60,604 bases of DNA from assembly GCA_001724265.1 (NCBI GenBank), contig MEDY01000028.1, positions 62,001 through 122,604 of the forward strand, read 5' to 3'. Under the pieces are notes generated by a model. That model ran no database searches. It was not told the origin of the DNA and worked only from the letters and a program-made list of their open reading frames with translations. The translations under genes were made by a program, and so were the position numbers. Shown here piece by piece: positions 1,424 through 33,700 of this stretch (positions within the stretch are counted from its first letter, which is position 1; each line of letters opens with the position of its first letter). This DNA comes from Rhizaria sp. SCN 62-66. Taxonomy: Eukaryota.

Positions 1424-3187
1424 TTATTCCTTGACTGGCTTGTCGTTCTTCCACTGCCCCTCCCAGGCGAACCCGCTAACCTTGTATTCGAAGCGGCCGC
1501 GGCCCTCTTTGACGTCATTGGCCCACTCACCAATATAGACGTTGCCCGACGGGTAGATCATGCGTCCGTGCCCGTGAAGCTTTCCCGCTAAGAAGTTGCC
1601 CTCATAGAAGGAGCCATCAGGCTCCTTCAGCTTACCATAGCCCTCGCGTTGCCCGTTGCGAACGGAACCACTGTACTCAGAACCGAAACTCGCCTTGTAG
1701 ACGCCCTCACCGTGCGGCACGTCGTTGTGCCAAGCGCCCGCCCATGCACCCACGCCGGGTAAAAGACCTACGCCCTGGCCGTTGCGCTTGTCATCGGCCC
1801 AGCTTCCGTCATAACTCTCGCCGTCAGCCCCTCGCATTGAGCCGTGGCCCTCGCGCCTGTTGCGAACCCACGCACCGCGATAAACGCCACCGTCACTGAA
1901 GTGCATCTCGCCCTCGCCGGAGCGGAGATGTTCCGCAAAGCCGCCGTGGTAGAAAGCGCCACTGGGCCAGCGGTATGTGCCCGTACCGTGGCGCAGACCG
2001 TTGCGGAACTCGCCCACGTAGGTTGCCATCAGTGTCGTGGGCTGTTTCGCTGGAGAGCGCGCCTGCGGCACTGCGGCAGTTGGGGGCGTGCGAGTGGAGT
2101 CATCGTCGTCGGAAGACTCATCGCCGAACAGACTCCCTGTGAATTCTGTTGGTGCAGCTTGTACGACGCTCGCGGTTGCAGCCGATGGCGCGCTCTCACT
2201 CGCAGGCACAGCTGTTTCTGACTCTGTGCTGGTGAGCGATAACGCTCTCATGGCGCCCGACAGGGCGTTACCGTCACTTCCCTCCGCAGTTGCCTGTTGT
2301 GTAGCAGGTGCATCATCAGCACCAGCACTGCCAACGCCGTCAGCACCAACGCCATCGCCACCTGCATCATCGTAGTCGGTGTCTACCTCGGCCTCAGCAT
2401 CACTCTCAGCCTTAGAATCGGTTGCACCGTTGTCTTCGTTGGATGTCATCTGCAACAACACCTTGTCGTCAACGGCGTCGCCAACTGTTGGCGTGTAGAG
2501 CACAAACTGTCTCCCGCGGCCGTGCGAGACTCCGCGGCGGAAGTTCCCGCGGTACAGTGTGTCGCCTTCCGCGGCCACGGACCAGCCTCGTCCGTGCCGC
2601 CGGTCGTCGCGGAAGTCGCCCTCGTATTGCAACATCAGCCCACTCTCGCGGTCGTACGTCCCAACTTGCTGCTTTTTCAGCTGCTTGTGTTGCTGCTTCT
2701 GACTACAAGGCAGTTTCTGCCAAGCTTCGAGAGTCATGGGCACGTACTCGCAGCCGTGACCATGACGGCGGCTCGCAACCCATTCCCCTCGGTAGACAAC
2801 CCCGCTAGCAGCGTCCGTGGACTCGCCAGTGCCTTCGCGTTGGCCCGCGCGAAATGCGCCGCGGTACGTAAACTTGGCCGTAATGAGCACACCAGTGCCG
2901 CTGGGCAGTCCCTTGCGCCACTCGCCTTCGTATGTTTGTCCATCTGCTGTTGTGAGACGACCCTGTCCGTGGCGCTTGTCGTTGCGCCAGGAGCCCGAGT
3001 AGGTGTCGCCGTTGGCTTCAGTCATGTTGCCTACACCGTGACGACGCTTCCGCACCATGTCGCCTTGATAGCAAGAGCCATCTGCCAACACGCTAAAGAC
3101 ATTACCGTCCTAATCGCTGCTGAAATCAGTGTCGGTCACTACCGCGGACGAGACATCGGACATATCCACGGTACCTGCTCCGGACAT
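1424..3187 (-). CDS. MORN-repeat protein (587 aa if TAG at 3110-3112 is read as sense)
   Basis: Many YxGxW/F...HGxG MORN repeats in two blocks separated by an acidic/Ala linker. ATG at 3187 is in frame (MSGAGTVDMSD...SSD*DGNVF). Ends in TAA. Confidence 0.85.
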
Positions 3188-4092
3188 GAAACAAATGAAA
3201 CAAAATGGGTACTTTTAATCGTTTTGATTTATGATTTGAAACTGGAAGACAAAGTCGTGCCTTATTAAGGCAGGTAATCTCCATCAAAAATGTGCCTCCT
3301 TCTTTCGCTAGCTGGGCGAGACGCAAAACGCGTTTGTGGTGGAGAGCATGCATACAACCAAAACAAAGAATATTCCAACATATCCGAAGACAGTAAGCAC
3401 AAAGTTTAAATCTTTACTGAAGTTAAGTGCAATTTATTGATATTCAAAAGTGATTGTTTCTAATCATCGCGATATCTTTAAATTATTGTGCTACACTCGA
3501 TGACTCAAGAGCTGAAATGCACACTTTTGGTGCCATATGCGTTCAGAGTGGTCCTCTATGAAATAAACTCTGGGATATTTCACATATCAGTATTTACTTA
3601 CTTTAAATACAATGTTTTGCCGCTCGAATAGTTCGTTTTATTGCATTAAGCTCCCCTATTTGTTCCTACATCTGTTCAAGTGATCTGATTTCAGCCGCTA
3701 TGAAAATTGATCGCCCAAAATGATGTTTACAAAACATAGAGCCATACTTACTCTATAGACTGTAATTCTCATGATATTGGGGTAAAAAAACTTAAAACAG
3801 CGAGTATAAACGCTGAAGCACATCAAACTTGATGTTGGCAGCAGAGACGCCGAGCTGACATGCAAGCTGCAACTTGAAAGGCAATTGCCAACTTAAAGCG
3901 AGCACAGGAGGGACGTGCGAACCAAGTAAAGAGCAGCTAAATCAAGTTAGTTCTTTCAAATTGTTTGTTCGATTTGTATTCAGATACGCATTGACTCAAA
4001 AAACTCGTGCTTTAATGCGCAGCTCTGAATTTTCCGTTTTTCAACTCATATCTTACAAGACTTTGCCCCCGTGTCCCACTCCTTTCAGATCC

Positions 4093-5448: not shown

Positions 5449-5566
5449 GAGCTGAACGACATGTATAGAGTCTCGTCATTGTAATGTAAGTGCTATGTAA
5501 GCGATGAAGTTTAGACAATGTGTAGAATATTCATCAACAAATTCACTCGATTCATACAAATGTTGT

Positions 5567-8500
5567 TTATTCTTGGTTTTTATGGTCGTTAACATGCTGC
5601 GACAACAAAAAGTCGAAATCTATCTAAATATCACAGATTTAATCAATGCACGCATCATGCATTTTATTGCTCACTGGCGTACCTCTGCTTTCGCGGCCTC
5701 CGTCTCAACCAGAGCGACTTCAGCAACCTGACGCTCAAACACGGCGCGCACACGCTCACGCGGGGCCGTTGCGCGGCGCAGCTCGGCCGCGGCCAGGCGC
5801 GCCACGCACGGCTCGCAGAACTCATCGCGCATGCTGCGTCGCGCCGCGGCGCCCCGCAGAGCGGCGGCCAGCGGCGCGGCGGCGACCGCGCGCATGGCCG
5901 CGGCAAGCGCGACTGCGGAGGGTCGCGCCCACCAGTGGCCCGCGAAGGCGCCTTCGCCGACGCGCTCGAAGCCCGCGGCGGCGACGGGGCGGCCAGTAGC
6001 TGCGGTGAGAAATGCCGTGACGCCGCCCCACGCCGTGGCCAGCACCGGGAGCCCCGCGGCCATGGCTTCGGCGTGCGGACGGCCCCAGCCCTCGCCGCGC
6101 GACGGCTGCACGAGCGCGGTCGCGGCGCGGTATAGCGACGGCAGCGCGCGCTGCGAGAGCGGCGCAGACAGCACGGACACGCGCGGCAGCGCGAGGCCAG
6201 CGCGCGCAACTGCAGCGACCGTGGCTGTGTTGTTCTCGGCGACGGCATGGCTTGCACGAAGCGTGCGTGCGCGAGCGAGCGTGTCCATGAGGAGTGTTAC
6301 GGCATCGACAAACGCAGGCGTGGCCGCAATGTGCTCCGCAACGAACATGCCACCATCGTCATCGTCGTCGTCATCGCCATGGCCGTGGTTGTAGTAGTGG
6401 CCCGCGCCGGCGCGCCGCGCGGTGCGGGCGGCACTGCGCGGGGCGTGCGCAACGCGAGGCGGCGTGGTGCGCAGCAGCAGCGTCGGCGGCTCCGCAGCCA
6501 GCAGTGGCGCCACACCCGCGCACTCGGCAGCGCTAATAGCGGCGCCAGAGCCGAGGGCATCTGCAGCGCGCGCGAGAGCGTGGAGCGGCTCTGCAACAAA
6601 CGCAGCGGTGTAGGCGTCGAGCAGCACGTCCCAACCCTTGCGCCGCTCCCACTTGAACACGGACAGCAGTGTCACCGCACCACCGTCGTTTGTGTCGTGG
6701 TCAGGATTGTCGGGGCACGTGCGGGCGAGTGTGAGGAGTGCGGCGGCCAGCGCATCAGCAGCGCCCTCAGCCGCCGTGACATCGCGCGCGGCGACGACAG
6801 CGGCGGCTGCGGCCTCTGCTGGGGCCCGCCGGTCAGCGCGCACATTGTCGTCGTTAAGCGGACTCACAGGGGCTGTGCGCGCGTCAGGCTGCGTGTCCGC
6901 CGCTGTATCAGGGTTCAAATCGCTCGCGTTCCCAGCCCCTACAGCAGGAGGAGTGATGTCGCCCTCGGGTTCGCGGCGCGCGGGAACGGGGTATGTCGGC
7001 AACAGCGGCACTGTGTGGAGTTGACTGCGCCACTCCGCTTCACTGACGCGGTCCGTGGCCGCGGGCGAGGCGCCAAGCTCAGCTTCGCCCCGCAGCAACG
7101 CCGCGGCCGCGCAGTCGCTCGGCAACACGCCCACAGCAGTCCCAGCCTCCGTGACGTTTTCGCTGTCAGTGGCGGCGGCGGCGCAGTAGCGCTGGACTGC
7201 GCGAGCCCAGCGGCGGCGCTGGGCGTTCGCGGGCGCAAACGTCGCCGTGTCCACGCCCTATGGTACGACGCGGACCTTGCCTGGCGCGACGCCCGCGGCG
7301 AGAAAGACTGAACGCGACCAGTCCGATGGGACCCAGACCCAGTCGAAGCGCGCGAGTCGCGCGGGCCATCCGTGCGGGAGCCGGTCGGACTCGAACATGG
7401 TGCGCGCAATGAGCACTGCGGGCAGCGTGTACGGCGACTGCGACGCGGCGGGCAGCAGCGCCGGCGGGGTCACATCCGGCCAGTTCGACGTCGGCGCCGA
7501 TGTCAACGTGACAGCGGTTACGCCAGAGTCAGCGTCATCAGCGTCATCAGCGTGGGACGCTGCAAGCGCTGCTGCGGCGGCGTCGAGCGCGGCCGGTGTG
7601 AACGAGAGCGCCGCGCCAGTCGAATCAGCCTCAGCAGTGGTAGCATCACCACGGCGCGCCGCGTGGAGCTGCTCCTGTGCGAGTGCGACGCCGCGGCGCC
7701 AGTCGTCCACTGCGGCCTCGGCGGCGGCGCGCGCGTAGGCGCCCCACGGCGCGCCTAGGGGCGGACAAGGCTCGGTGCTGAACCGCGGCGGATGGAACGC
7801 GCCCGGCTCGACGTGGCACACCACGGCGGCCACGGGTACAGACGCCAGCGCGCGCCACTTGTCCTTAGTTGCCGCTGCGGCTGGTGGTGCTGCCGCAGCT
7901 GTGTCCGCAGAGGGCCGCGGAGGCGGAGGGAAGAGGGCGAGTGCGAGAGGACGCGTGGCGAGTGCGGAGAGACGCGACTGCAGAGCGGCGGGCAGACCGG
8001 CGTAGAAGTGCGCCGACACGGCGTCGCCGCTGTGCCGCGCGGTCACCGACACGGCCACGGGCGCGTCTGCGTCTGCGTCTGCGTCTGCTTCTGCGTCAAC
8101 CCTTGCACGGTTTGCGGGGTGATGCATGCCGTCGAGGTGGGTAATAAACGAGATAGCTTCGCTGCCGTAGCCGCCGCCACTAAATAGGGGCGCGTACCAT
8201 AGCACTGACACCGGACGCGGCGCCACAGCTATTTGCACCGGCGCGGGCTTGGGGTCAGCGACTTTGGACTTCGTGTTTGAACTCGCAACTTTATCTGGAT
8301 CTGAACGAACATCACTGTCTGTTGTCAGCGACCGCGATTGCACGGTGGGTTGCACGGCAGACGATGAGGCAGTTGTTCCACCAGATTTCAACGCTGTCGC
8401 ACCAGCGTTTGCGTCAGGGAGCTGAACTGTGGCGCGCAGCTCAACTGCTGAGTGTGCGACAGAGTTCCCTGACATTCTCGGCGAAGCCAGTGCGGGCGCC

Positions 8501-8760
8501 AGAGCGTCGGGTGCGGCCCAGAAGAGCGCAGCGACGGAAGCCAGAACAGCCACCACACCGACTGTGACAACAAGGAGGGAAAATGATGAGCGCGGGCGCG
8601 CGGGCTGGCGCGATGAGTCTGTGGGGGTGGCGGGCTACGAGGTTGATGAGGGGGAGGCGACTGCTGGGCCGTGTGATGTAGGGCCGGGACTGGTTGGGAC
8701 AGGGCTCAGACTCGCTAGATCGCCGGGTCTTTGACGACGAGTGCGTGCACAAGTGTCCAT
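5567..8760 (-). CDS. GT4-family (GT-B fold) glycosyltransferase with N-terminal membrane anchor, ~1035 aa, two in-frame TAGs (8635-8637, 7258-7260)
   Basis: Motifs WYAPLFSGGGYGSEA, RTMFESDRLP, VWVPSDW, VVP*GVD, LSVFKWERRKGWDVLL and PSRGEGWGRPHAEAMAAGLPV lie in one frame from ATG 8760. A probable last intron 5682-5597 (GTACGC...CAG) gives TAA at 5567; unspliced, it would end at TGA 5671. Confidence 0.85.
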
Positions 8761-8990
8761 TCTAGTTCGTAGGAGCGCGTATGTGGTGCACATGGGTGAG
8801 ACATGGCGAGTCTGGAGGATGGTTCAGGAGTATCGACCGACAGCGAGTTCACGGGGACAGTATAGATATCACGTATTTGATCGTTGAGAGACGAACTATT
8901 TTAAATCCAAATATCTTCACCGCTTTTTGAATATTGATACCAAATTATATGTCTCAAAACGCCCTTCTTTTGCGTTTCCGAGCTTTTCAG

Positions 8991-11118: not shown

Positions 11119-14100
11119 TCACTGAGAAGGCTTAAGGTACCTGTCCCTGAAGGCCTGTGTCTTGTACACGTCATACTCAGGCGCGTCGTCCACCTTAGCC
11201 GCATAAAAACCAGCTAATACTTGACGCGCCGATTCAGGTGCGGCGTCGAGAACCGCAAACACGCGCCGCTCGCGCCGCTCCGCCGCCAGACGTTTGCTTT
11301 CCTCCTCAGTGAGATACAAGTTCTTGCTGCAGCCTTGGGCTTGAGTGCAGGTGGCAACATGGACGTGCATTTTTGCCCGCGTTGATGCAGTTGTGTTTAG
11401 ACATACACCGCAGAAGTGATGGGACGGCAGACTCGTGTTTGCGCATTCCACGGCGGAGCATGCGTCCCAGTCGACTATAATGTGGCCGCAGCCAGGCAGA
11501 GGGCAGTAGTCGCGGTACGCAATCTGCAGCTTCTCAACAACGTCATAGTGTTTTTGCTCTATAGGATTGAGCATCACAAAGTCTGGATCGCCGAAACAAT
11601 GCGTCTTGACGCATGATGTGCACTTGAAGTACTTTGTGTGTGTGTTAACTACGCATGTGGGAATAGAACATACAGATGAAGAGGATTGTTTTGTTGAGAG
11701 TCAATTGTGTCAACGTAATTTAATTCTAAAATAGCTGACCTAAAAGAAAAAAGTGCATCGCGTTTAAGTACCTGCAGTATATAAAACAAACAAGTAAAGA
11801 TAGTTATACTGCGTTCAAGTTTAGATCTTTCACGTACCGTCGCGCAAGAGGTTGTCCTCATGTTGAACCTCGAAACATCCCGTCATAGGACATTTCATTA
11901 GCTTGCGGTGCGGATTAAACTTAATAAAGTTTTCTAGCGCAGCACCAACAAGGCTGTCGAAATCTTCCCTGCTCAGCGCGCCAACTGGTAGGTCGCACAA
12001 TAGAAGCGGTTGCGCGGTCGTTGCAGGACACAGCGCGCATTTTAGATCGCCTCTCCTAAGCGCTGGCAGGGCACCCTGCAGACACTCTGTACAGAGCAGA
12101 TGCTCGCACAAAACGGGAGCAAGACCCAGGTTTAACTTTGACACAGGCTCTAAACAACACGAGCATTGAGACTTGGCACCACTGCTCTGAAGTTTCTTCA
12201 GGCGCGTTTCGTCTGCCTCCTTGAAAAAGTGTCCTTTGTTTTTCAAAGCTTCTTCAAATGTCTCAACCTGCCGTTTAGAGCCAGAGACGTAGTATGATTT
12301 CTTCATATCTGACACTTCATGCTCAATCAGGGTGACGCCACTGCCTATGTGAGCAGTGTAGATGGCTTCAGCAGGCGTGAGAGCGGAAAGCTCGACAGGT
12401 TTATCAACAATTTGCATAGCGCCAAGCCCTTCCTCAAGTGTGGCAACGTTTTCGAGCAGCCGTTTGCTCGACAATGTACCACCGTAAACAAAAATCGCAC
12501 CAGACATGCGACAATAACGACCCCACGCAGACACGCTGTCGTTACCAACACCGTTGCGGTTGCTTACAAGCGCGGCAAGCCTCTTTGTTGCGGTCGGCCC
12601 TGCCATGCGCTGAACAATGTTTGCGCACCCACTTGCAACAGCACTAACTTTGCGAGCAACACACGTGACTTCCTTTTCGGAAAACTCGCGGAGCTCATCA
12701 ATTCGGTCAGTACTGGGCAGTCCCACTGTGATCATGACGCAATTTTTGCGTGAGTAGTCAACTCCGACAGCAGCTTTGTCTTCAGGTAGCCCAACTTCCG
12801 CAGTAAGACACCTTTGTACATCTTTTCCAAGTGCACTGCCAGCATCAACAGGCATTGTGATTGTCAAAAGCGTTATTTCTCCATGACACTGGAGATTATC
12901 GCCGTTGCCAAGCTCAGACGCCGTGGGCACAGCGGGACACGACGCCAAAGTCACATCGGCGTAGTAGCGCTTTGGCTTGGACTTGTAAAGAAACCCGGAG
13001 GATATGACCTTCATGTTGCGCCCTGTGACAATTGCCGGCAGCTTGAATGTGCCGCTTGCGGACCATGTAAAGCGCACACACTGCTCTACGCGCCGGCGCA
13101 CAGTTGTGTCAGGGCTGACGCGCGGATCGCCGTCAGTTGTTGCAAGCAAGTGTGATGTTTGCGTAAAACGAGTGGATAAGTTGCTACCGTTGCTCTTAAG
13201 ATACTGGACAACCGTATCAGCAGCCGCACTGCCCGTGCACACGAGTGTTACACACATTTTATCGGAATTTGCCTGTTTTGCTGTAAGAACAGACACAACA
13301 TGCTGACGCACACCAAGCAACACACGTTCACAAAGTCGGGTCTCTGGGTAGCACTCTGTGAGCGGCACGTTATTAATGCGCACCATAGCGGTCTTGCCAC
13401 CAGGTAACACATCTCGAACTTTTAGCCCCGCACCGCAAAGGACTGACGTGCCACCTCCAATATCAAACTGACGCATTTCCCCGAGCACGCGATTGTGAGC
13501 GTCCCACATGTAATCCTCTAGACAAGCCATCGCTGTCTGAAGCAGCTATGCGCTGCGTGCGCGAACTGTAACAAAGCCAGATCCAAGTTGTAGCATGCAG
13601 CCATTCATTTCCTCAAAGGCCCGGACACACCAAACATCCGGGAATGCTGCGTTTAGCTGACCCACTGTATACGTGCTGCATTCCTCTTCAACCATCTGCG
13701 GCACTCCATTCTCATACTCGCGGCACTTGTAAGCCACGGATTCGCTTTCACGGGTGATCCACTCGAGTTTGGCGTCGTACGGCGGCGTTAAAATAATATA
13801 CTGATTGTGTACAGCATGCGACGTCAGAAAAATTGACCAGTCACGTGCCTTGACAATTGTCTCTGCCTTTTGCGGACGCCAGTTTGTCAAGATTTTGCCG
13901 CTTGTGACATGGATGTACTGCGCTTGGAAGAGCGCTTGGCTATTCTGCGCCGCTGCATCTCGAACAATATTAGGCACAAGCTTGCGTAGGGCGTGCGTAT
14001 AATAGCCAGCTGCAACGCACTCACACACCAATGCAGGGGTGATGTCTTCGCGCAAAGGTTGCACGTCAAGAGCCCTCGGATCTTTGCAGACCCCGAGAAA

Positions 14101-16650
14101 AAAACCCTTAAAGTCTTTGCGCGCGCAATTAATCCATCCCTGCGCACGCGTAAAGTACTCGCGCGGCAGATTGGTCAATCTTAGGATCGAATTCTGACCT
14201 TTCCGGTCGTTTGCCGCCGTCACCGTCATCCAGTCTACAATAGCCCCAACGCAGATGGAGAGCGGTACACTTTTACTCATTCGCACTGTGCTGCTACTGG
14301 AGGTGCTCTTGCGTTCACCAACCGCTGTAGAATCATACGATGTTGCATCACGTCCGATGTAGTCATGAGTTGATAGATGCACAAGCTGCAGCGCTGCAGC
14401 AATGTACAGACCGACTGCATTTTTGTACCGATACATCGCTTCGCAAACGACACGAGTCAGCTCAATGGAGCACCCCCCAACAACGCTTAACTGTCCGTAT
14501 TCAGTCACTAAGTAGCTTTTTCCGTCATTAGTCACCGCCTTCAGGTCACACAAGTCTTTGAGCGCATGAGTTACGCTGTTCTCTGTTGGCTCTTCAAACC
14601 ACCTAAACTTGAGCGGGTTTTTTCGGAGCGAGATAAGTGCCATGAGCGTTGTTTGCAACGGCTGACAAAGGACTGCAGGGCGATTGAAAGCGGGGAACTG
14701 CCCAAAGTCGTTACGACTATACAGGCGGACGCACGTGCCGGTCCGCGTGCGACCAGCGCGACCGGCACGCTGCTTGGCAGATGCTTGTGAAATAGACTGG
14801 AGTGACACATGAGCAATATGCGTCTCCGGGTTGAACTCTGTCACGGAGCGCAGACCAGGATCAATGACCACAGTAACACCATCAATAGTCAGTGATGTCT
14901 CAGCCATTGTTGTTGCCAGATACACGGTGCAACCTGCCAGAGTGGTCGTAAAATGCCGCTCAGCAAGTTGCTTCTTCTTGTTCAGAGCGGCACTGTCCGC
15001 ATTCCGGATCTCATCCAGATTCGTAGCATCTATTAACTCACTTTCACTGTCTGTCAGCGTCACTACCTGATACTTTGCAGCAACAGCCATGCCACGTGTG
15101 TGTGCAGGCCGTTGCAGCAGTCGGCCTGCTGCTTTAACGTCGGCGTCTGTAGGAAGAAACACGAGAATATTGCCACGCAGTTGCCCGCATAGGTCGCCGC
15201 GGAAGCACTCGTCTACGGCGCGCACGGCTGCAGCCACAACACTGTTGGCACTCAGACGCTCCAAAGGAGGACGATACATAACATTGAGCCAATTGCGAGA
15301 AGTCTCAATATCAACGTGGCTAACTGAGAGTCCCGAGTTCTCAAAGTAGTCCGCGAATGCTTTGGCGTCAATTGTGCCTGACATAACGACCGTCTTGACA
15401 CCCGCCCGCGCAGCGTCAATGGCGAGCTCTAGCAGAATATCACTTTCAACAGTGCGCGTATGAGCCTCATCAATAACCATACAGCCTAGCTGTTGTCCGG
15501 GCACAAGGTCCATAACTTGCTCCCCGCACAAGCAGGCGACGAGCTCGCGGTAGGCGCTAATGACGTCACTCTCAGAAGCATATGCCACACGAGTATCAGA
15601 TTTAGCGTCAGCACACGCGCTTTTAAGACAGAGAACAACATCTGGGTGTTCCTTCCTGAGCTCTTTGATGACTTCACTAATGCTCTCAATAGCTTTCTTG
15701 TCGCCGGCGTCGGTGACGCAGTTGCGCAAGAGCCCGCGTACCTTGTAGCAGTCACCAGAAAAAATTACGCCTGTGTACGCAGCAAGACTCTTGGCCGCGA
15801 TGCGGTGTGGTTGCGAGCATAGCACAAGTTTTCCTTGCATGCTCTCCAGATCAGCGAGATATTGCGGCACAAGCGTGCTCTTGCCGCATCCAGGCGCACC
15901 CGTGATGAGTACGACATCATTACTCGCCACCGCGGCCTCGATATCATGCCGGACCCACCGCGCAGCGTAGTTACCGTTCAGCAGCGCGGCTTCACGCCAG
16001 ACAAAGCTAAAAAACTCGCGATATCGGTTAATGTTGAAGGCATTGTCAAGCGCCACTAGCTTGGACTGAATGCGCACCCGCGCGTTGTGTACGTACTGCG
16101 TAAGCGCGGCATTCTCAATGAGACTGTCTTCATCAGAGAGTTTCCCCAGCTGAACCCGCGTCACGCTGTCGACCACCACTTCAAAGTGGCCAACGCAGCG
16201 CTGTGCAAGTTCGCACGCCGTGGTCAGACTTAGCTCTGTTGAAGTGCGGTGATGCCGCGCGAGGGTGGTTGTTGGGGTGGGGCGGGCTGCAGCTGCAGTA
16301 CGCATCTGGTGCGACCGAAAAACAGACTCAGGGTTTTTGTTTGCAGCCACCTCGTGCCACGTCAATTTTGAGATGGGCTTTACAGCATGGGGCTTGCTTT
16401 TGCTTTCCTCAAAGCCCGGATCGTCGATATGGGTGTATGGACATACCATACCCGAGCGAGGAGCAATCGCGCACATTTTCCGCAAGCCCTGGTAGCTACA
16501 CAGGGGGGTCAAGATCACATGGCGATTGCTACACCCAGTATCATGACACAGTGCTCGCAGCACATAGTAACACAAAGGGACACCTGAATGGTAACGACAG
16601 TTATGATTAAAGCAATCGTCGCCGAACCTGCACGTTGACTCGTGTGACAT
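11119..16650 (-). CDS. CCCH zinc finger + DEAH-box helicase + RING-IBR-RING (RBR) E3 ligase fusion, ~1780 aa; exons 16650-11838 and 11648-11119; in-frame TAG at 13546-13548
   Basis: N-terminal C-x-C-x-C-x-H clusters; helicase motifs GAPGCGKST, QPHRIAA, DEAH, MSGT, QRAGRAGR; RING1 (CSCC...CEHLLCTEC...CALC); IBR-like CPMTGC...CTSC; RING2 CPLPGC...DWDACSAVEC...HFCGVC. The GTACGT...TAG intron keeps the frame. Ends in TGA. Confidence 0.8.
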
Positions 16651-21700: not shown

Positions 21701-22186
21701 GCAAGACATTGCGACTGGCACATGAGTAGAGTAATGTAAAGAGAAATTGGATCACGGGGTGATTAGGGGCGAAACAGCTGCTTATGCGGACTGTCCTGCA
21801 CTGTATGTTGCGTCTTCCGTCGGGGGGCTGTGCCGCCGCGGCGGGCCAGCGCGACGACAGCTGTGCCGCCGCGGCGGGGGAGCGCGACTACAGAGCTCGC
21901 AACAACCATCGCACGCGCGGAAAACGCGCGGCAAGGCCGTCATTGTCATGGTGGCGATTGAAAATAAAACGTTATTCATTCTTATGCGCATCATAAGTGC
22001 GTTTGAAAGGACGACGACTACGAACAAATTAGAAAAAAGTAACCATTGGTAACCGACAAACTATTTTTGTGATGACAGCAGCAAAATAAACATAATACTG
22101 TACGCAAGCCTCATAGTTTCACACACATAAGCATTTTTTCAGTCACTGACCGACGCGCTTACTGGCAGACTGACAGACTGGCTGGC

Positions 22187-25009
22187 TTACTTGCGAGCAG
22201 CGCCTGCGCCGCCACCGGGCGGCGGACGGCCACCGCGCACGCGCTTGCCACCGCCCTCGGCCGGGGCCGGAGCTGGTGCCGGAGCCGGTGTCGGTGTCTG
22301 CGTGCCTGCGCTTGCGCTGTTGCCTTCGGGCGACGCGCCTGTAGCAGCGGTTGGGGCTGCGGCGGCTGCGGCAGCGGCAGCGGCAGCGGCGGCGGCGGCA
22401 GCAAGCGATGCCGCAGAGACGCCGCGACCGCCCCGCACCACAGGAGCCTGCTCCTGCTGCTGCTGCTGTTGCTGATGTTGACCTGAGCGCTGACGGTTGC
22501 GCGGCTGAGCCTGCGCCTGCGCGTGAGCCTGAGTCGACCCGGGGCCCTGGCCCTTAGACGGTCCTGGGGTCGGGGTCTGCGTCAGGCTGCTGCCGCCGCT
22601 GCTGCCGCCGCTGTGGCCGCCGCGGTGACCGTGGCCGTGGCGGTCGCTCGGGCTCTGCTGCTGCTGCTGCTGGTGTTGATGTTGCTGTTGTTGCTGCGGA
22701 TGGGGACGCGGCTGCTGCTGCGTCTGCTGGTAAAGCTGGGGGAACTGTTGTGCGTACTGATCCTGGTCCCGCGGCTCCACTTGCATCGGCCGCAACGGCA
22801 GAGGCAGCTCACGGCGCTTTCTCCGCTGCTGTTGCTGCTGATGCTGTGGCGATGCAGCGCCGTGCGGTGACTGCTGGCGCGACTGCCGGTGGTGGGGGTG
22901 CTCGGCGCCGTGCTGACGCTGGCTGTGGCTGTGGTGCGACTGCAGCGCGGCAGACTGGCCCTGGCCCTGGCCCTGGTACGCCGGATGCAGCTGTTGGTGC
23001 TGCTGCGGGGATATAGTCCGCAGCAGCGGCGCGAGCGCGGCCGCGGCCTCCATGGGCCCCACGCCCTCGGGCACCATCGCGAGCAGACCCGCGAGCACGG
23101 CGGGCGCGGGCGCGGGGGCGAACCCGCGCGCGGCGAGTGCGGCCGCCACGGCGGTCACGCGCGCGGGCGAGGCCGCGGGCGCCGCGGGGGACTGCTGCTG
23201 CAGCTGCTGCTGCGCTCCCGCTCCCGCGCCGTTGCTGTTGCTGTTGTTGCCGTTGTTGTTGGCGCGCGGGAGCAGCGAAGGCACAGGCGCTTCGTCCTCG
23301 GTGGGAACCGAGACGGAGGACGCCGAGACCGAGGGCGTGGACGATGACGCGGAAGTGCCCGAGACTGAGTAGTCGGCCCAGGCTTTCATCGTCATCATCT
23401 GTGCGACTGTGCCCACCGCCGCGCCGCCGCTCGCAGCACCGCCGCTCGCAGCCCCCGCGTTGGCGTTAGGGCCAGCGCCAGAGCCAGCGCCAGAGCCAGA
23501 GCCAGTGGCAGCGCCAGTGGCGGCGCAAGTGGTGGCGGCGCCGGGCCCGATGCGGCCGGCCGAGGCCTTGTCGACCACCAGCCTCAGCGCGAGCGCCGCA
23601 GGTGAGGCCGCCGGCGCCGGTGCCCCCGCCTCAGCACTATGGGCTGCAGACGACGCGGGCAGTACCGCGGTGCCTCTAGCGCTGGCGGGGACCGAGGGCG
23701 CGGCGGCCGAGGGGCGCGCGGCGAGTGTGCGGGATAGACCGGGGGAGCGGCTGCGGCTGCGAGCGGAGCCGTGCTGCTTCTTGCTGCTGCTGCTGCTGCC
23801 GCTGCGACCGCTGCCGCGGAAACCGTAGGTGTGGCTGTTGTTGAGACTGCTCTGATGCGGCTGCGGGAGTGGATGTGAATGCGGGTGCGCCTGCGCCTGC
23901 GCCTGCGGTTGCGTGTGCGCGTGAGGCTGGGGTGGAGATTGCGGCTGAAGCTGGGTCTGAGCGTGCGTGTCGTTGCTGCGCGCTGCGTCTTGAGAGAGCG
24001 CTCTCGGGGCGGTTTCAGGCGCGTTCGCAACGGGATGCTGGTCCTGCGACTGCGTCTGCGGCTGAGGCTGAGCTGTTGACGGCGAAGGCTGGGCAATTGC
24101 AGCAGCATGCGCACTCTGCTGCTGCTGCTGCTGTTGTTGTTGCTGGTGATGGACGTGCAGACTGGGCGGCGGCAGCGCGCGCGTGACGTAGACGTACGAG
24201 CCATCCGCGAGCCGCATCAGCACCGGCGGCTCACTCGCCGCTGCCACGGCTGCAGCGCCACCACCCTCAGCAGCTCCGGCCGCAGCCGGAGCCGTCGCCG
24301 TCACAGCGCCAGCGCCCGAAGCAGCTGCGCCCACGGTCGCGCCAGCGCCGTCGCCGCTCTGCGCCGCCGGACTGGCAACTGCGAGCGCGGCCTCGGCCCC
24401 CGGCGGCAGCACCGTCGTCAGCGGCGGCGGCGGCGCGTGCGTCGCCGTCGCGTGGCCATGCGTCGGCAGGGACAGGGCCGCTGGCCCCGGCGGCGGCGCG
24501 GTCGGATACGCAGGGTAAGGGTGCGCCGCGAGGCCCCCAGTGAGCGCGTGACCGTGACCGTGACCGTGACCGTGGCTGTGACCGTGCGGTAGCTGGTGCG
24601 GGTGGAGCGCGGCGTGCGCCGCGTGGACCGCGTGCGCGTGCGCGTGCGGCGGGTAGTAGGGCGAGTAGCCCGCCGCGCCAGGACTGGACGCCGCCGTCCC
24701 CGGTCTCGGCCCGGGCCCGTGGGCAGGACCGTGGCTGTGGCTGGGACTGTGCGCAGCGGCATAGTACTGCGACGGTGCGTACATATGCGCGTGCGGGTGC
24801 GGAAGCGGCGGGTAGCCGTACGCCGCCATCGCGTGTGCCTGCGCCTGCGCTTGCGCCTGAGCCTGTGCCTGTGCGTGGGCTGCGTGCGCCGCGTGCGCGG
24901 CGTGCTGGAGCGAGAGGCCCGGCGGCGGCGCATAGTACGGGTACGGGGCGTACGGCGGGTAGCCCGCGGCGCCGGCGGGGGGCGGCCCAGTCGCATACGC
25001 GGCAGCAGC

Positions 25010-25040
<31 letters not shown>

Positions 25041-26033
25041 GCGGCAGACCCGGGCGGCGGCAGCGGCAGCGCCCCAGGCGGCACTTGCGCCGGCACGGTC
25101 CCGGCCGCAGGCGGCGCGCCGGCAGCGTCGGACGCAGACCCCGCGTGCGCGTCCACACCGGGGGGCGACTGCATCCCGTGCCCGTGTCCGTGCATGTGCG
25201 CGTGCGCGTGGGCGTGCGCAGGGTGTGCGTAGACAGGGCCGGCCGCGCCGCCCGTGCCGCCGCCGCCGCCGTGCGAGTGCAGCAGCGCGTGCGCCGCAGC
25301 GAGCGCCACGTCAGCGATGTTTGCAGGCACAGTTGTCGCTGCCGCTGTGGTGGTCGCCGTCAACGCCGGGGGAGGCGCCGAGAGCGACGCCGAAGCAGGC
25401 GCAGCAACGAGCGCGCCGCCGCTGGTGCTGCTGCTCCTGAGCCCGGGCGTAGACGCGGCCTCAGTCGGGACAGCGGCAGCCGCGAGCGCGGGCGCGGGCG
25501 CAGCAGCGGTTGCTGCATGCTGCGCCGCGGGGACTGACTGCGGGGCCGCCATCGTCGTCACATGGGGCCGCTGCGCAGACGCGGCGCTACTGCTGGGCTC
25601 GGCGGCGCGGGCCGCGTCCTTGCTGCCGGGGGGATGCTGGCTGGACGTGGCCACAGCGGGGGTCGCGGCCGCGGGCACTGTGATCGACGCGGCGGCGGGC
25701 AGAGACGCGGCGGGCGCGCTGACTGAGGCGGGCAGCAGAGGCGGCGCCGTGAGCAAGCTGCCCTGCGTCGCGCGCGGAGGCGGCGTCGCGGCAGGGCTGC
25801 GGCCGTGGGCAAAGAACGTCGCCTGCGCCTGCGACGGGGATTGCGCAGGGCCGGAGCCGTTGGGCGGGACCCAATGCCCACCGTGTTGTGTCACACTGTG
25901 CTGTGCTCCACTGTGCTGACCGCCGTGGGACGTGCGGTAGAAGAAGCCCGCGCTCCCGGGCCGGGGCTGGGACTGCGGCTGCGGCTGCGGCTGCGCCGCG
26001 GAGTAGTTCTGCGGATACTGCTGTTGCTGTTGC

Positions 26034-26112
<79 letters not shown>

Positions 26113-27902
26113 GCTGTTGTTGGTACTGCTGCTGCTGTTGCTGATGCTGCTGCTGTTGCTGCTGGTGCAGCTGGAGCTGGCGCCGCGAGCCGGTCGTGCG
26201 GGGACTCACCACGGTCGGGTTCGCCGCAGGCGCGGGGTAGTAGACCCCTCCGTGGATATGGCCATGCGCCTGTAACGGGGTCTGTGTTTGCGACTGCGTT
26301 TGTGCGCTGGTTTGGCTGTGCGCGTGCGACAGCGCGTGCGACTGCGGTGCGGCCCCAGAGTTGTTGCTGTTGGGCCCGGATGTGGAGGCGGCGGCGCGCG
26401 GACTGGGCTGGCTCGCCGCGGCGGAGACGCCGTCGCAGACCGACTGGGGGCGCGGCGCCAGCGCCGCAGCAGGAGTCGCAGTCGTCGTCGCAGACCCGGG
26501 CATGTGGCCGTGACCGTGGCTTTGCCCGTGGCTGTGGCCGAGAGAAAGCGCCGGCTCAGAGACAGGCAGCTGCTCGACCGGCGGCATGGCGACCCCGAAG
26601 GCAACGGGCGCAGTCACGGGTGTCGAGGCGCTGTCCGCGTTGACCGCCACACTCACCGAGCGCCGCGCACCCCCGGGCCCTGTCGCACTCGCGCTGGCGC
26701 TGGCGCTCGCGCTGACGCCGGCGACGTTGGCGGCGGCGGCGGCGGAGGTCTTGACGCCGCGGCGACTCTGGCCCTGGCCTTGCCCCTGCGCCGCTTGACC
26801 AGAGCCCGGCTGCTGCGCAGCGCCCTGGCCGTAGCCGAACGCGGGGCGCGAGCCCGCGGCGGCGATGGCGGCCGAGGTGGGCGTGTTGGGCGAGTAGCGC
26901 ACTTGCACGTAGCCGTTGCTTGACGCAGCCACGCCGCGCCCGCTGTGACCGTGGCTGTGGCCGTGGGCGTAGCCGGAGCCAGACCCGTGGCCGTAGCCGC
27001 CGAAGCCGCCGTGGCCGTATCCTTGGTTGGAGTAGCCGTGTCCGTGTCCGTGGCCGCCGCTGCCGCCGCCGTGAGGCTGTTGGCTGTGCGCCGGACTGTT
27101 GCTGTACCGAGGAGTCAGCTGCGGGTCGCCAGGCGTTGCGGGCGGAGACGCGTCTGCCGCAGACCGGACTGTCTGACCGCCACCGCTAGTGTGAGTGACT
27201 GGCAGTGCGAGCAGCATACCGGTCGGCCCGGCCTCGCTCGGCCCAGCCAGCGGAGGCGCAGTCTGACCCTGACAGGGCTGACCGCTGATTTGACCGGGTG
27301 CACCGCCAGTTTGACCGGGAATTTGACCGGGTTGCGCGTCGGAGGACTGCACGTACGACGCGGCAACCCCGCGGCGCGGCATGGCGCTGGCGGGGCCGCC
27401 CAGCTGCAGCTGCTGCAGTTGCTGCGGCAGCGGCGGAGACGCGGGCGAGAGCGTCGGAGACACGTCGCCCACAGTCCGCGGCGCGTGCGCGTGTGTTGCT
27501 TGGGGCTGCGCATGTGTTTGTGCATGTGCGTGCGTGTGAGGATGCGCGTGCGGGTGCCCCGGCTGACCGTGCGCGGGCGCCGCGGGGTAGTAGTACCAAA
27601 ACACTGGCTGCTGCTGCGCGCTCTGCATTTGCGGACCAGGCTGCTGCGGACTGTGTTGCTGCGGGCTATGCTGCTGCAGCGGCGGCGCATCGTCACTGGT
27701 CGCGGATGTGGTCGCGGTATCGGGCCCTGGCTGCGGCGGCGGCAGCGGCAGCGAAGACGTGGGCGCGAGATAGACCTGACCGTTGGGCGCAACAATGTAC
27801 GCGAAGCCGGGCAGCGGCGTCGGCAGCGGCACCGGCATGGGGTACTGCTGCGGCGGCCCATGCTGGCTGTAGTGGACGCCGTGGGGCGGGCCGTAAAACT
27901 GC

Positions 27903-27934
<32 letters not shown>

Positions 27935-30710
27935 GTGATGATGATGTATGTGATGATGCGACTGCATCGCGTGTGCGTGTGCATTCGCGCCCGAAGTCGC
28001 GGCCGAGACCGCGGTCGACGTGCGCGTGAGCAGCAGCGGAGTCGACGCGGCGCTGCTGCCGTCTACGGTCCCCACGCTCATCATCATCATGCCGTTGCCC
28101 ATCGCTGCGCCGCTGCCGCTGCCGAGAGGGGCGCGCGCGCGGCCGAACGTGGGTCCCGGCGTCGGCCGCAGTGGGACGGCGATCGCGACCCCGGACTCCT
28201 CCGCAGCGGCGGCCGCAGCGGCAGCGGCAGCGGCAGCGTCGCCGCTGGTCGCCGCCATGGCAGTCGCCGCATGCGCGTGCGCGTGTGATGATCCGCCCGC
28301 GGTGACGAGCGCGCCGGGGGACGGCACGACAGGCGTCAGTGAGAGGCCCGCCAGTGCGCCGCCGCGGCCGCGGGCGAGGTGCGCTGCGGCCGCTGCCGCG
28401 TAGGGCGAGGCGGCGGCGCTGGCGCTGTAGTCGGGCTGCGAGCGCGCCGTGGGCCGCGCCGTCGCCGTCGTCATCAACGGCCTGTACCCAACCGAGCCGC
28501 CCGCCGTGCTGGGCGTCGCCGCCGCGAGGGGGGCCGCGGGCACCGCGAACTGCGCCTGCATCTGCGTCTGCGGGGCGGTGGCGAGCAAAGGCGTGGGCGC
28601 GGCGCTCGAGTCCGACTCCGCGGGGCTCGCGCGCGCAGCGCCGAGCTGGAGCTCGACGGATGTAGTCGCTACGGCAGCGGCGGAGGCCGCGCGGGCCGCG
28701 GGGGCAGAGGTTGCGGCGGCGGAGGCTCCACCGGCCGCGGGAGCAGCGCCGCGGCGGCGCGCGCCCGTCTGGCCGGGCCAAGGCAGCGCGAGGCGGTTGA
28801 ACAGGTGCTGCTGCCAGACCGGCATCGCGTTCCCGTTCGCTGCGCTGCCGCTGCTGTGGCCAGGGCCGCCGGACTTGTGCGCGGACTCGCCCGCGCTCGC
28901 GGTTGCGGTTGCAGTGCCGCCAGAGAGGCCGCCTGCGTCGTGCGCGGAGTCCGCAGCGCCAGAGGTAAGTGCGGAGTGTTTCGTCGCGTCTGACTGTGAA
29001 GGAGCAGCAGTGGTGACCGAGGCCGCGAGCATGGCCGAGTGCGCCGAAGCCTTGTAGTTGTCGAACGGCAGGCGCTTGGCCCACCGCGCGACCAAGTACA
29101 CCGCTGCGTCGGGCGCCGTGCACAGCGCAGACAGCTTCGCACGCGCGAGCGTCTCAAGTGAGGCGCTGCTGTTCGAAGCGGACGATGGCGACGGTGCCAG
29201 TGGCGGCGGCACGAGGCTCCGCAGCGCAGCAGATGCTGTGGCAACGGCGGATGCCGTCGTCGGACAGAGCGCCGCGGCGGCGACGGAGGCGGCGGACAGC
29301 GCGGCGGCCGTGGCGCGCGCACAACGGCGCGCGAGCCAGGCTGGGAGACGGCCACCGTGGAGAGCTGCGACGCAGCGGCGCACAGCGGTGTCGCCCGCGT
29401 CAGAGTCGGCGAAGTGGACGAAGACGCCCGAGTGCAGCGATACACACGGCGGCGGCGGCGCCATCGCGGGCGCAGCCGCACCCGCACTCGCGCTCGAAGC
29501 AGGCGCGACGGTGGACAGAGAGCTGCCCGCACTAGCACACGCGCTCGCAGTCGCGGTTGCGGTGGCTGCGGGCTGCGCGACAGTGCGCGTGGGCGCGACG
29601 GGCGTGTTGGCCGCGGAGGAGGAGCCCGCGCCGTAGGCAGCGAGGAGCGCGGCGGCCTCGGTGCTCGCGCGCGGGAGACGGCGGAAGAACGCGCTGGGCG
29701 ACGGCGCGGCTGACTCGGCAATGGTGGCCATTACAGGCGCGGCAGCGGCGACGACGGCGGCGGCGGCCGGCGTCCCGGGGGGCTGCAGCGAGCCGAGAGG
29801 CGGGAATGCCGGGTCGTCTTCGGCGATTGTGATCACAGTGATCACGTCGTCACTCTCGCTCTCGGTCGCACTCTCAGTCGCGGTCGCCGTGTCACCGTCA
29901 GCCGCGGTCAGGGCGGTGTGTGCGGCTGCGGTGGCCGGAGCATGCGCGTGTTCGGAGAGGTAAAAGTTCTCGTCGATGTACGCGTCGTCGTTGAACGGGC
30001 ACACACGGGGTGGGAACGATCCAGTCACGACGGTCACGGGGCCGAATTGAGCGAAAAACGCCTTGAGCTCCGCGACCGTCAGAGCCGTCGCGCCCTCCTC
30101 GCCCCATTGCTGCTCTAGCTCGCTCTCCGCGTTGCCGTTAGCGCCAGTGCCAGCGCCAGCGTCAGTGTTGGTGTCGGCGCCGGAGCCAGTGCCGGGGAAA
30201 TGGCGCGCGAGCAGCGCGTCGGCGGCGGGATTCCGGTCCCCCACAGCGCGCGCGTCTGCCAGCGGCATCGGACTGAGCACGCGCAGCGGCACGCACGAAG
30301 CGGCAGTGCGCAGCGCCGCGGGCGGCAGCCAGGGCGCCACGGCGCACAACGGCAGTGCAGGGGACAGCGCCAGCAGCACGGCGCGCAGTGCGGCGGGGTC
30401 ACCCGCGGCGGCCGCAGAGGTTAGCGAGGGCGGGAATGGCGGCAGCACAGGCGCAGGCACCGCCGCTGAGAGCGTCGCCGCAGGGGCCGTGGAGGTCGCG
30501 GCCGTAGCGGCGGTGCTGGATGACGCGGCGGTGCGGCTGGCCATGGAGGAGTCGCCCGTCGCGGTCGTCACCGTCGACGCGAGCGCGTTGATGCGGCGCG
30601 TGGCGGCACGCGCGGACGCCGGCGGGGACGACGACGCTGCGTGTGAGCTGAGCGACGAATCGAGCAGCAGCTCGAGGCACGTCTCGGACCGGTGCGGCGA
30701 GCCTCCGTGA

Positions 30711-30751
<41 letters not shown>

Positions 30752-33700
30752 CGCAGAGGCGGGCTCGACGGCGGCCTGGGACGACGCGGCGGCGAGGTCA
30801 GTCGTCGCGGGGACACCAGCGACTTCTGCCGCGGCTGCGGCTGCGGTGGTCGCAGCGTCGGCGCGGAGGCCCAAGGCGGCGTGCGCGTCCATGAAGAGCG
30901 AGCGGCCGCTGGAGTAGCGTGCCGACGTGGCGCGATCCCCGGCCGCCGCAGCCGTTACACATTCAGCGCCCTGCGCCACGCTTGACTCAGCGGCCCCGGA
31001 CCCGGAAGCGACGCCGACACCGACACCGGCCACGGCGGCGTCGGCTGCGCCGCCAGAGGAGTCGGACGAGTCGACGCCGGCGCCCGACCGCTCGCCGGAG
31101 GGCGCGTGGATCGAGCTGAGCGACCAGCGCACGGAGGACTGCGATGGCCGCTGCGACTGCAAGTGTTCCCGTGAGTGCTCCTGCGAGTGTTCGCGCGATT
31201 CCCGCGAGTGCTCGTCGGACCGCACGCGGGAATGGCCCGGGGACGAGTCGGGCGATGCCTCGACGCCGATGCGCGGCGGACCCCCGCCAGTGGCGGCCCG
31301 CGGGCCAGCGCCAGCGCCCGCGTTTGTGGGGGCAGCGGCGACGCCGGGCGCTGCGGTCGACGCCGTGTTTGAAGCGGCAAGCGCACGATCGCGGTCACGG
31401 TCACGTGGCAGAAGCTCGCGGAGCGCGTCCAAATGCGCGCCATTGCTGGCGGCGTCGCTGTTGTCGGTCCCGGTGGTGATGGAGCTCGCAGTGACGGAGC
31501 TCATCGTCGTCGCCATCGACAGCGCACGCTCACGCTCTGGCAGCCGCGCGCCGCCGCCGCCGCCGCCGCCGCCGCTGGTGGTGGTGACCCCGCCGGGCAC
31601 GGTGCGCGTGGCCTTGCCAGCGGTGGAGACCATGACGGCATCGTCCACTCTCTCGCCGCGTACATGCGCTTTCTCCCCAGTCGCCGTCGTCGCTGTCATC
31701 TTCGCCAGCGCGCGCGTGGAACCAGACTCGACGTTCGCAGCATTCGCGCGTGCGAGAGCGAGGGGCACGACGGGGCGTTCGGCGACGGTCTTAATGAAGA
31801 GCACGTTGCGCTGCAGACTGGTGTCGGCCCATAGTACGCGGGCGGGGGCGGGACCGCCGAGGTCGGCCAAGTGCAGGCGGCGCTTCGCGGCCTCGGCGGA
31901 CTCGCGGTGACGGAAGCGCACGCTTGCCGTCACAGTGGCAGCGGCCCCATGCACACTTGCACAGGTGCCCGCGGTGGCGGCGGCGTTCGCGGCAGCGCTG
32001 TCTGCGCAGCCACCGGAGGCAGCGTCAGCAGTAGCAGGAGCGGTATGTTGTTGTTGGTGGTTGTCGGCGTCGCTCTCCGACGAGACAGCAGCGGCAGAAG
32101 CAGCGGCGGGGACAGAACCGGGGGCAACGGGCTACGCGCTTGCAGCGGCGACAGGCGCGGCGCTGGCGGGCGCGGGGCCCGGCGTGACCGAGACGAACAC
32201 GTCTTCCTCGACGATGGGTCCGAACGCGCTGGCGAGCGACGCGACAGCGTGCGCGCTCACATTCGCGGGAAGCCCCGTGATGAGCAGCGCCGTGTTCGGC
32301 TGCGCCCAGCCGACGCGGAGCCTGTGTCCGGCCCAAAGCGCGCCCGACAGCCGCGCCTTAGCCCTGGCGGCGGCGGTTGAGCTGGTGAACTCGACGAAGC
32401 CGTACCGCAGCGAGCGCTGGTTGCGGCGGTCGCGTTTGAGCTCGGTCTGCGCCACGGCGCCCGGTCCGCCGCAGAGCGCGTGCAGCATCTCCGGCGTCGC
32501 GAACGGCGGCAGGTCGCCTAGAAACAGCAGGCGCGGCGGGGCGCAGACCGCGGAGCCGGGGTCGGAGCCCGCGGCGGGACTCGAGCCGGCGGCGCAGCCG
32601 GTCGCGGAGGCGGTCGTCGACGGGCAGTCAGCGGCGGCGGCGGAGGCAGCGGCGGCCGAGTGGAGGAGACCGAGGTCCGTGCGCTTGCGGCCGCGGCCGC
32701 GCGCGCCGCGCATCAGCGCCGGTGACGGCGTCTGGCCCGTCGCTGCAACCGTCGCACAAATCGTCGAAACAGCAGTTGCAACGGCACCGGTGGACGTTGC
32801 GGCGGCAGCGAACCCAGGCTCGGGCTCATGCGATGTGGGCTCGGTCACAGGCGCGGCGTCGCTATTGCTGGTGACCGCGGTCACGGCTGCGGCGAGCGCA
32901 GCGGTGGCGAGAACAGCGGGCGACAGACCGGCATCAGCGGCGACTGCGTTCGCGCCACTGGGCGAGTCCGCGGCCTCGGCCAGCGTCTCCAGCGCGAGCG
33001 CGAGCGCCAGCGGCGGCGTGACCGGCGCGGACCCCGCGACCGGAACACCCACGGGCCGCGCCGCTCTGGTGGCCGCCGCAGCGCTGACCGGCGCGGCGAC
33101 CGACGGCGGGGCGCTGGCGGGCACGACGGGCACGGCGGGTGTGTGCTGCACCGAGTCGTCGGAGCCAGTGATCGGCGTGATGGCCGACACGTGCGCCGGC
33201 GTCACAGTCTCTCTCTCCGTCTCCGCGACCGTCTCCGGCACAGGCACAGGCACGGGCGCGCGCGCCGGTGTGGCGAGCAGGGGCGTGAGCAGAGACGCGG
33301 CCACGGCGGCGGCGGGCGCGGGCATCGGCGCGAGCGTCGATGGCGTCGCGGGCGCGGGCACGGCGCGCATCGGTTCGGCCCCGAACACGTCGGGAACGGA
33401 GATGTGCGACGGCGAACGCTTGTGCCGCCGCGCCAGCGCAGCCGCAGCGGCGGCCGCGGCGGCGGACGTGGGCGAGACCGCGTCGGGCGCGACCACGCCG
33501 TCGCCGGGGGCGCCGCTGGCGACTGTAGACAGCTCCGGCACGGCCAGCAAACTGCGGCGGCCGCTGAGCGGCTGGTAATCAGCATCGCTACCGTCGCCGC
33601 TGGCCGAGTCGCTGTCGCTGCAGCTGCAGGAGCGCGAGCCGTCGTCGGGACACGCAGCGCTCGATAAGTCGCCCGTCGCGGTCGAGTCGGTCGTCGCGCG

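Follow-up and report, generated by a model that had tools for sequence, protein, structure and literature searches.

In-frame UAG codons in a window of protist nuclear DNA suggest a UAG-specific change of the genetic code

Five in-frame TAG codons interrupt four protein-coding genes in a 60.6-kb stretch of contig MEDY01000028.1 (assembly GCA_001724265.1, Rhizaria sp. SCN 62-66), which was analysed over its full length and is referred to here as the window, and every gene whose end could be identified there terminates with TAA or TGA. We regard a UAG-specific stop-to-sense change of the nuclear code, with UAA and UGA as the sole terminators, as the probable explanation; coming from a single window, the evidence is suggestive, not conclusive. 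A UAG-only reassignment had been proposed in an initial annotation of the window. The behaviour of TAG as a translated codon and the terminating role of TAA and TGA stand, whereas a genome-wide, tRNA-based change reaches beyond what 60 kb of evidence can carry.

TAG, TAA and TGA within genes and at their ends

All five TAGs claimed by the initial annotation were found in frame on the minus strand, appearing as CTA on the plus strand at positions 3110, 7258, 8635, 13546 and 32132. They lie in genes for a MORN-repeat protein, a GT4 glycosyltransferase (which carries two of them), a zinc-finger/helicase/RING-IBR protein and a 5,139-codon Ala-rich RRM protein. Reading through TAG merges the open reading frames (ORFs) of the standard code into frames at 1424-3187, 5671-8793 (across two TAGs), 11830-17052 and 22187-37606. 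The TAG contexts quoted earlier (TAG-GAC, TAG-GGC, TAG-CCC, TAG-CTG and TAG-CCC) were correct, and they share no motif.

Terminal codons, whose tabulation had been proposed earlier, were counted in 16 gene models that have an identifiable terminal stop and allow for introns, comprising 13,278 codons. Within these models TAG occurs five times and TAA and TGA not once, whereas the models end in TAA (8) or TGA (8) and never in TAG (0/16). The same pattern had been described for 18 complete models; the pattern held, but only 16 models could be built. A Fisher test of internal versus terminal position against TAG versus non-TAG gave 4.9e-5 for all five sites, 1.0e-3 with the three strongest sites and 6.5e-3 with the two decisive sites described below.

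The sequence that follows the codons also separates the two classes. After each of the 16 terminal TAA or TGA codons, one to six more in-frame stops occur within 80 codons, whereas zero stops occur over the same distance after each of the five internal TAGs. A codon-usage score trained on TAG-free genes only mostly collapses past the terminal stops. UAG is rare in the models, at about 0.4 per 1000 codons, and the codon count bore out its claimed absence from the genes for HSP60 and citrate synthase. TAG is the rarest of the out-of-frame stop triplets (75, against 105 TAA and 449 TGA). Two further TAGs, in stop-extended ORFs, were rejected as evidence: one near 16981 sits in non-coding DNA of 37% GC, and one at 51634-51636 is the 3' end of an intron.

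The five TAG sites

The first of the two decisive sites (13546..13548, minus strand) is codon 1169 of ORF 11830-17052, in a gene for a CCCH zinc-finger/DEAH-like helicase/RING-IBR protein (11119..16650, minus strand; Pfam Helicase_C and AAA_22). Homology to an uninterrupted orthologue of 1506 aa, P0167, which is 59% identical over 1454 columns, divides this gene into exon 1 (~11838-16650), an intron (~11650-11837) and exon 2 (11119-11649). The TGA that closes ORF 11830-17052 sits just within the intron; the gene runs on into exon 2, which matches the C-terminus of P0167 and ends in its own TGA. All three homologues are collinear with the gene across the TAG, placing opposite it T (P0167) and, in the more distant P0291 and P0293, N and G. 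Against P0167, the 268 residues before the TAG (901-1168) are 59% identical and the 231 after it (1170-1400) are 60% identical; taken overall, identity is 64% before the TAG, where the helicase core is included, and 55% over 548 aligned residues after it. Because the residues just after the TAG are as well conserved as those just before it, the ~560 codons downstream have evidently been kept and have evolved as protein. Public gene calls made with the standard code split the helicase at this TAG into an N-terminal protein of 1119 aa (P0166) and a C-terminal one of 559 aa (P0290). Searches with the helicase alignment returned no related locus from metagenome contigs and 33 distant bacterial HrpA loci only from genome contigs.

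The second decisive site (7258..7260, minus strand) is codon 512 of the gene for the GT4-type glycosyltransferase, a protein with an N-terminal tail and a membrane anchor (5671..8793, minus strand; 1040 codons). Here the TAG forms part of a V-V-P-[TAG]-G-V-D motif that joins the two halves of the GT-B enzyme, and the catalytic C-terminal half (EGWGRP...) is encoded downstream of it. The assignment of the gene is supported by Glycos_transf_1 (E 8.6e-10), Glyco_trans_1_4 (E 2.3e-9) and Glyco_transf_4 (E 1.6e-4). Of 37 homologues found, 25 were aligned, and all 25 are collinear and gap-free at the TAG, with exactly one residue opposite it: E in 10, G in 9, P in 2, S in 2, A in 1 and Q in 1. The ORF ends in TGA; a possible GTACGC donor at 5682 would shift the end of the gene to a TAA nine codons further on.

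The same gene carries a weaker site at codon 53 (8635..8637, minus strand), which is placed inside the coding sequence by start-codon logic. The membrane anchor, FSLLVVTVGVVAVLASVAALFWAA, falls between this TAG and M107, which is the next ATG in frame. Tail, anchor and catalytic region follow one another in the same layout in P0158, the green-algal homologue.

Two other features of the glycosyltransferase gene were recorded. Its homologues come mostly from bacterial metagenome bins (Actinomycetota, e.g. Miltoncostaea and Baekduia), together with one green alga (Scenedesmus), and the protein combines large Ala-rich inserts with a eukaryote-style tail and membrane anchor; a horizontal origin of the gene is possible, judging from these homologues. 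At 8062-8097 (bin 7688-8211) depth rises to ~4,000x in run X4 and ~1,000x in run X6, with many loose ends. This segment is a GAC/GCN repeat coding for (D-A)n on which unrelated low-complexity contigs accumulate, and the peak is therefore no signal of copy number.

Start-codon logic also places the TAG at 3110..3112 (minus strand), another weaker site, at codon 26 of the MORN-repeat gene (1424..3187, minus strand; 587 codons, Pfam MORN E 1.2e-67, ending in TAA). The first MORN repeat, YQGDMVRKRRHGVG, begins ahead of the next in-frame ATG (M44), and the start of the gene would therefore have to lie upstream of the TAG. At the ATG at 3187, which is 25 codons upstream of the TAG, composition shifts from AT-rich to coding-like. 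An intron at this site was considered and rejected: with GTACCG (3174), GTAGTG or GTATGC (3355) as donor, the result is stops, an intron of 33 nt or the wrong frame.

The fifth TAG (32132..32134, minus strand), a strong site, lies in a giant gene for an Ala/Ser/Pro-rich RRM protein (22187..37606, minus strand; 5139 codons, 70-76% GC, ending in TAA). It alone separates two open stretches in the same frame, of 1,824 and 3,314 codons, both of ~75% GC. The upstream part contains an RRM_1 domain (E 7e-13), and a second RRM (31811..32302, minus strand) is split by a GC-rich insert of ~85 residues that forms a loop and holds the TAG. Read as a whole, the second RRM matches the RRM_1 profile in two stretches at 22.2 bits (cut-off 20.7; E 1.3e-4), with profile positions 1-31 upstream of the TAG and 41-66 downstream; each half alone reaches 13.8 bits, so that the domain passes the Pfam cut-off only when both sides of the TAG are read jointly. 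The insert has 72% GC, cannot be aligned and has a length divisible by three. In the giant gene Pfam detected nothing but RRM matches, and no family in the 3,314 codons past the TAG.

Confirmation of the TAGs in reads had been advised earlier, and for four of them it was obtained from assembled contigs of runs from other studies; 32132 lies outside this comparison. Contigs of run X3 match the window at 3110, 7258, 8635 and 13546, including one that spans 13546 with no difference listed there; X4 contigs cover 3110, 8635 and 13546 unchanged, and X5 covers 13546 unchanged. Elsewhere, these X3, X4 and X5 contigs do show differences from the window. Since they are unchanged in independent contigs that differ elsewhere, the TAGs at 3110, 7258, 8635 and 13546 are neither assembly errors nor sporadic alleles. 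Strain differences in coding sequence number 12, of which 8 are non-synonymous, and stem mostly from low-depth contigs; most of the listed single-nucleotide differences come from contigs of depth <8, some <5, and may be errors.

Introns were considered at each site, because those of this organism can mimic the pattern. Four introns were defined by homology, three with the donor GTACGC and one with GTACGT. Two are in the RPC5 gene (~50952-51123 and ~51407-51636, plus strand), both starting with GTACGC, 172 and 230 nt long and of 48% and 41% GC; with the helicase intron, the three that were measured span 172-230 nt and 34-48% GC and lie within GC-rich exons. The fourth intron defined by homology is at 57632, and the SEP/UBX gene has several introns. 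Two of the three 3' ends read are TAG (RPC5 intron 2 and the helicase intron) and one is CAG (RPC5 intron 1), and RPC5 intron 1 is in frame and free of stops; a long open frame containing a TAG is therefore not evidence by itself. The TAG flanks have 44-78% GC, unlike the AT-rich measured introns, and a search for GTAYGY donors within 250 nt upstream of the five TAGs found only the one at 3355, which allows no frame-preserving splice. At 7258 and 13546 there is no room for an intron, because the homologues are collinear. Apart from the question of the TAGs, the unusually uniform GTACGY donor could help to bin contigs of the organism and perhaps to identify its lineage.

Meaning of UAG and competing explanations

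If UAG has been reassigned, cytosolic ribosomes would translate it as an amino acid and terminate at UAA and UGA. Decoding would presumably be by a dedicated tRNA with anticodon CUA, described in an excerpt of PMC5304391 as the only anticodon that pairs with UAG but not with UAA, and eRF1 would probably recognise UAG poorly. The rarity of UAG and its avoidance in highly expressed, codon-biased genes would fit a young or weakly used reassignment. The initial annotation had named Gln or Glu as the best fit, a choice that the alignments do not establish: the column at 7258 holds E, G, P, S, A and Q, that at 13546 holds T, N and G, and around the remaining three sites the sequence is of low complexity and cannot be aligned. 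Glu and Gly are the commonest residues opposite TAG 7258, among homologues that are mostly bacterial. Gln is a weak favourite from these comparisons, because the single named eukaryote among the homologues carries Q at 7258 and one transition separates CAG from TAG.

Several observations weigh against a reassigned UAG. The sample is small, with five sites (two of them decisive) and 16 terminators from one 60-kb window. Given the codon usage of these genes, 55-61% of the possible single-base nonsense changes yield TAG, and five TAGs out of five have a P of ~0.05-0.07 under a plain nonsense-mutation model. The absence of TAG from 16 terminators is only moderately improbable, with a P of ~0.02 if TAG is assumed to end one fifth of genes. 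ARAGORN found no tRNA genes in the 60-kb window, and eRF1 is not among the proteins encoded there. Both alignable TAG columns are variable, and they disagree on the amino acid. P0167 has no in-frame TAG in its 1506 codons, as the construction of its gene call dictates. The listed pieces of a poly(A) RNA run, X6 (e.g. 7348-7568, 12849-13194 and 13852-14054), miss all TAGs, and TAG 32132 falls outside the stretch compared with contigs of other runs. The 52 codons upstream of TAG 8635 score poorly for codon usage (-0.17), and use of a non-AUG start could place the TAGs at 3110 and 8635 in 5' leaders. Finally, a 211-nt X5 contig of 3.5x depth has GAA>TAA (E154>stop) at 2728 in the MORN gene, a change that might be an artefact of sequencing or assembly, or else genuine and thus an in-frame TAA in another strain.

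The alternative that survives best is that UAG formally remains a stop and is bypassed without a dedicated tRNA, through near-cognate readthrough (e.g. with a weak eRF1) or through editing of the mRNA to a sense codon. We consider it unlikely. TAGs at sense positions of intact genes would fit it equally well, the low frequency of UAG (5 in 13,278 codons) is what inefficient decoding would give, and no consistent residue stands opposite the TAGs. The base after the stop points the same way: it is C at three of the five internal TAGs and at one of the 16 terminators, 13 of which are followed by a purine, a contrast that is suggestive and not significant. C at the +4 position is the leakiest stop context in eukaryotes. 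Bypass of selected sites does not, however, predict that none of 16 genes ends in TAG. The internal TAGs share no context, and the 100 nt downstream of them fold no better than shuffled sequences (z -1.69 to +0.09); because there is neither a shared context nor a downstream fold, and because no gene ends in TAG, programmed readthrough appears unlikely from the sequence. The truncated products, peptides of 25 or 52 residues or half of a GT-B enzyme, would be useless, so that bypass would have to be near-complete and in practice would amount to reassignment. As for editing, some filamentous fungi are known to convert UAG to UGG by A-to-I editing in their sexual stage, but the HSP60 tree groups this organism with no fungus.

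The TAGs might instead be ordinary nonsense mutations under the standard code, in young pseudogenes or null alleles, which we judge highly unlikely. TAG is the expected majority product of such mutations, as stated above, and eight of the 12 strain differences are non-synonymous, the possible GAA>TAA change of the low-depth contig among them. Against this, four of 16 genes would have to be broken, by five hits and by TAG alone, in frames of 587-5,139 codons that contain no frameshift, TAA or TGA. Constraint is not relaxed past TAG 13546, where identity to the orthologue is the same on both sides. The TAGs are present in every covering contig, from runs of other studies dating from 2017-2025, and are thus not heterozygous or sporadic; the lack of TAG among 16 terminators would also be left unexplained.

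A gene-model artefact, with the TAGs sited in introns, 5' leaders or the gaps between genes and the frames across them open by chance in GC-rich DNA, is very unlikely. In its favour, introns do exist, two of three ending in TAG and one being in frame and stop-free, start-codon logic alone puts 3110 and 8635 inside coding sequence (with the poor score of the codons before 8635), and the insert around 32132 is unalignable and divisible by three, but the homologues at 7258 and 13546 are gap-free with exactly one residue opposite the TAG, the TAG flanks have neither a GTACGY donor nor the GC content of the measured introns, chance cannot have kept 3,314 codons open at 75% GC (from base composition, an estimated ~1.4% of random codons would be stops), and separate in-frame genes at 32132 are implausible with no spacer and no ATG for ~150 codons.

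The organism and other UAG-only codes

The window is intron-poor nuclear DNA of an aerobic eukaryote. Its products include citrate synthase, HSP60 of the mitochondrial type, a mitochondrial carrier, the mitoribosomal protein mL19, RPC5, Pop5, ASF1 and PTPA, gene content that agrees with the aerobic protist named by the initial annotation. A Ras-like GTPase and the SEP/UBX protein are also encoded. GC content varies strongly along the window, from 48 to 76%, and its sequence recurs in bioreactor, wastewater, microbial-fuel-cell and activated-sludge runs from six studies.

HSP60 matches metagenome sequences at 100% and 93-95% identity, three environmental proteins at 73-75% and named eukaryotes of several supergroups at only ~60-62%, with green-algal sequences in the same range. 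A protein-atlas search yielded nothing beyond generic clusters of citrate synthase. Its clade in a FastTree phylogeny of 121 sequences consists of environmental proteins and one EukProt transcript only. A scan for related loci with HSP60 gave six: one (L034) is the same region of the same organism, one (L035) is a 2-kb contig with the 93% HSP60 relative, which carries HSP60 alone and ends it with TAA, and the remaining four are 46-55% identical; the scan added no further genes of the organism.

Elsewhere in the window, 3859-5510 is GC-rich, with a tandem repeat of 42 bp x 5.7 at 4749-4992 and long ORFs that overlap on both strands and have neither a Pfam match nor a clear coding score. The minus-strand frame of this segment encodes repeated VGRGQ(R/C)GPRQ units, and a 3-nt deletion at 4367 is common to runs X3 and X4. 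The ~3.3 kb at 18847-22186 hold no convincing gene and show an A-over-T skew on the plus strand of up to 0.34. An Rfam search of the window gave no match.

As far as the cited excerpts of two papers describe them, nuclear codes in which UAG alone is sense amount to a handful, mostly in ciliates, the non-ciliates being a rhizarian, a fornicate and a green alga (PMC5304391, PMC11687900). The rhizarian exLh (Sainouroidea) uses UAG for Leu, with 384 in-frame UAGs in 71 genes that end in UAA (56) or UGA (15) (PMC5304391), and Iotanema spirale uses it for Gln with UAA and UGA as stops (PMC5304391, PMC11687900). The list of uncoupled codes in the initial annotation was incomplete: to be added are Scotinosphaera (Ser), Protocruzia tuzeti (Gln) and several phyllopharyngean ciliates (Leu or Gln), Hartmannula sinica and Trochilia petrani with Gln among them (PMC11687900). 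An oligohymenophorean ciliate has split the two codons in another way, with UAA as Lys and UAG as Glu (PMC5304391, PMC11687900).

Compared on the same excerpts, the codes with UAG as Gln (the logic of NCBI table 15) resemble that proposed here in having UAG alone as sense and UAA and UGA as terminators; Gln would suit one site, 7258, where the green-algal homologue has Q. They belong to an anaerobic fornicate and to ciliates, whereas the present genes include mitochondrial ones of the tricarboxylic acid (TCA) cycle and lie on a contig of >60 kb with exons of up to 76% GC, GTACGY introns and a very low UAG frequency (0.4 per 1000). Like exLh, the organism is a protist outside the ciliates for which contaminating or environmental sequence is the only record; the two also have in common UAG as the only in-frame stop, UAA and UGA as terminators, and depletion of UAG in highly expressed genes. 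The UAGs of exLh, however, fall at conserved Leu positions, whereas the 16 genes here contain five, and in none of the homologues does a TAG face Leu; the HSP60 clade, which holds environmental sequences only, does not link the organism to exLh. Scotinosphaera is likewise a non-ciliate with a UAG-only code that keeps UAA as a stop (PMC11687900). With respect to its Ser, this residue stands opposite TAG 7258 in two of 25 homologues, and Ser-rich stretches precede all but one of the five TAGs; HSP60, at ~60-62% identity to green algae, indicates no close relative there. Condylostoma, Blastocrithidia nonstop and Amoebophrya also have stop codons as sense inside genes, but in them UAA and/or UGA are sense too, whereas the 13,278 codons examined here contain neither in frame.

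Searches of open-access literature and bioRxiv preprints, supplements excluded, found no UAG reassignment reported for a wastewater protist or a GC-rich non-ciliate protist. Most likely, the window adds one more case, probably an unreported one, to the few nuclear codes in which UAG alone is sense. A more specific version is quite unlikely as a whole, namely that an undescribed, uncultured lineage of aerobic, GC-rich, intron-poor eukaryotes of wastewater reactors has reassigned UAG alone, independently and recently in evolution, with UAG only now returning to genes at ~0.4 per 1000 codons and possibly standing for an amino acid new for UAG in nuclear codes. If true, it would offer a snapshot of an early stage of "codon capture", which theory predicts and which is rarely seen.

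For annotation, the finding means that applying the standard code to contigs of this organism from wastewater metagenomes will truncate its longer genes, an expectation that follows from the public calls already split at TAG 13546 (P0166 and P0290). For the evolution of the code, UAA and UAG nearly always change meaning jointly, and a further independent case would add data on how they become uncoupled. The organism is very different from the known cases, being GC-rich, aerobic and intron-poor, and the rarity of UAG in its genes may show an early stage of reassignment.

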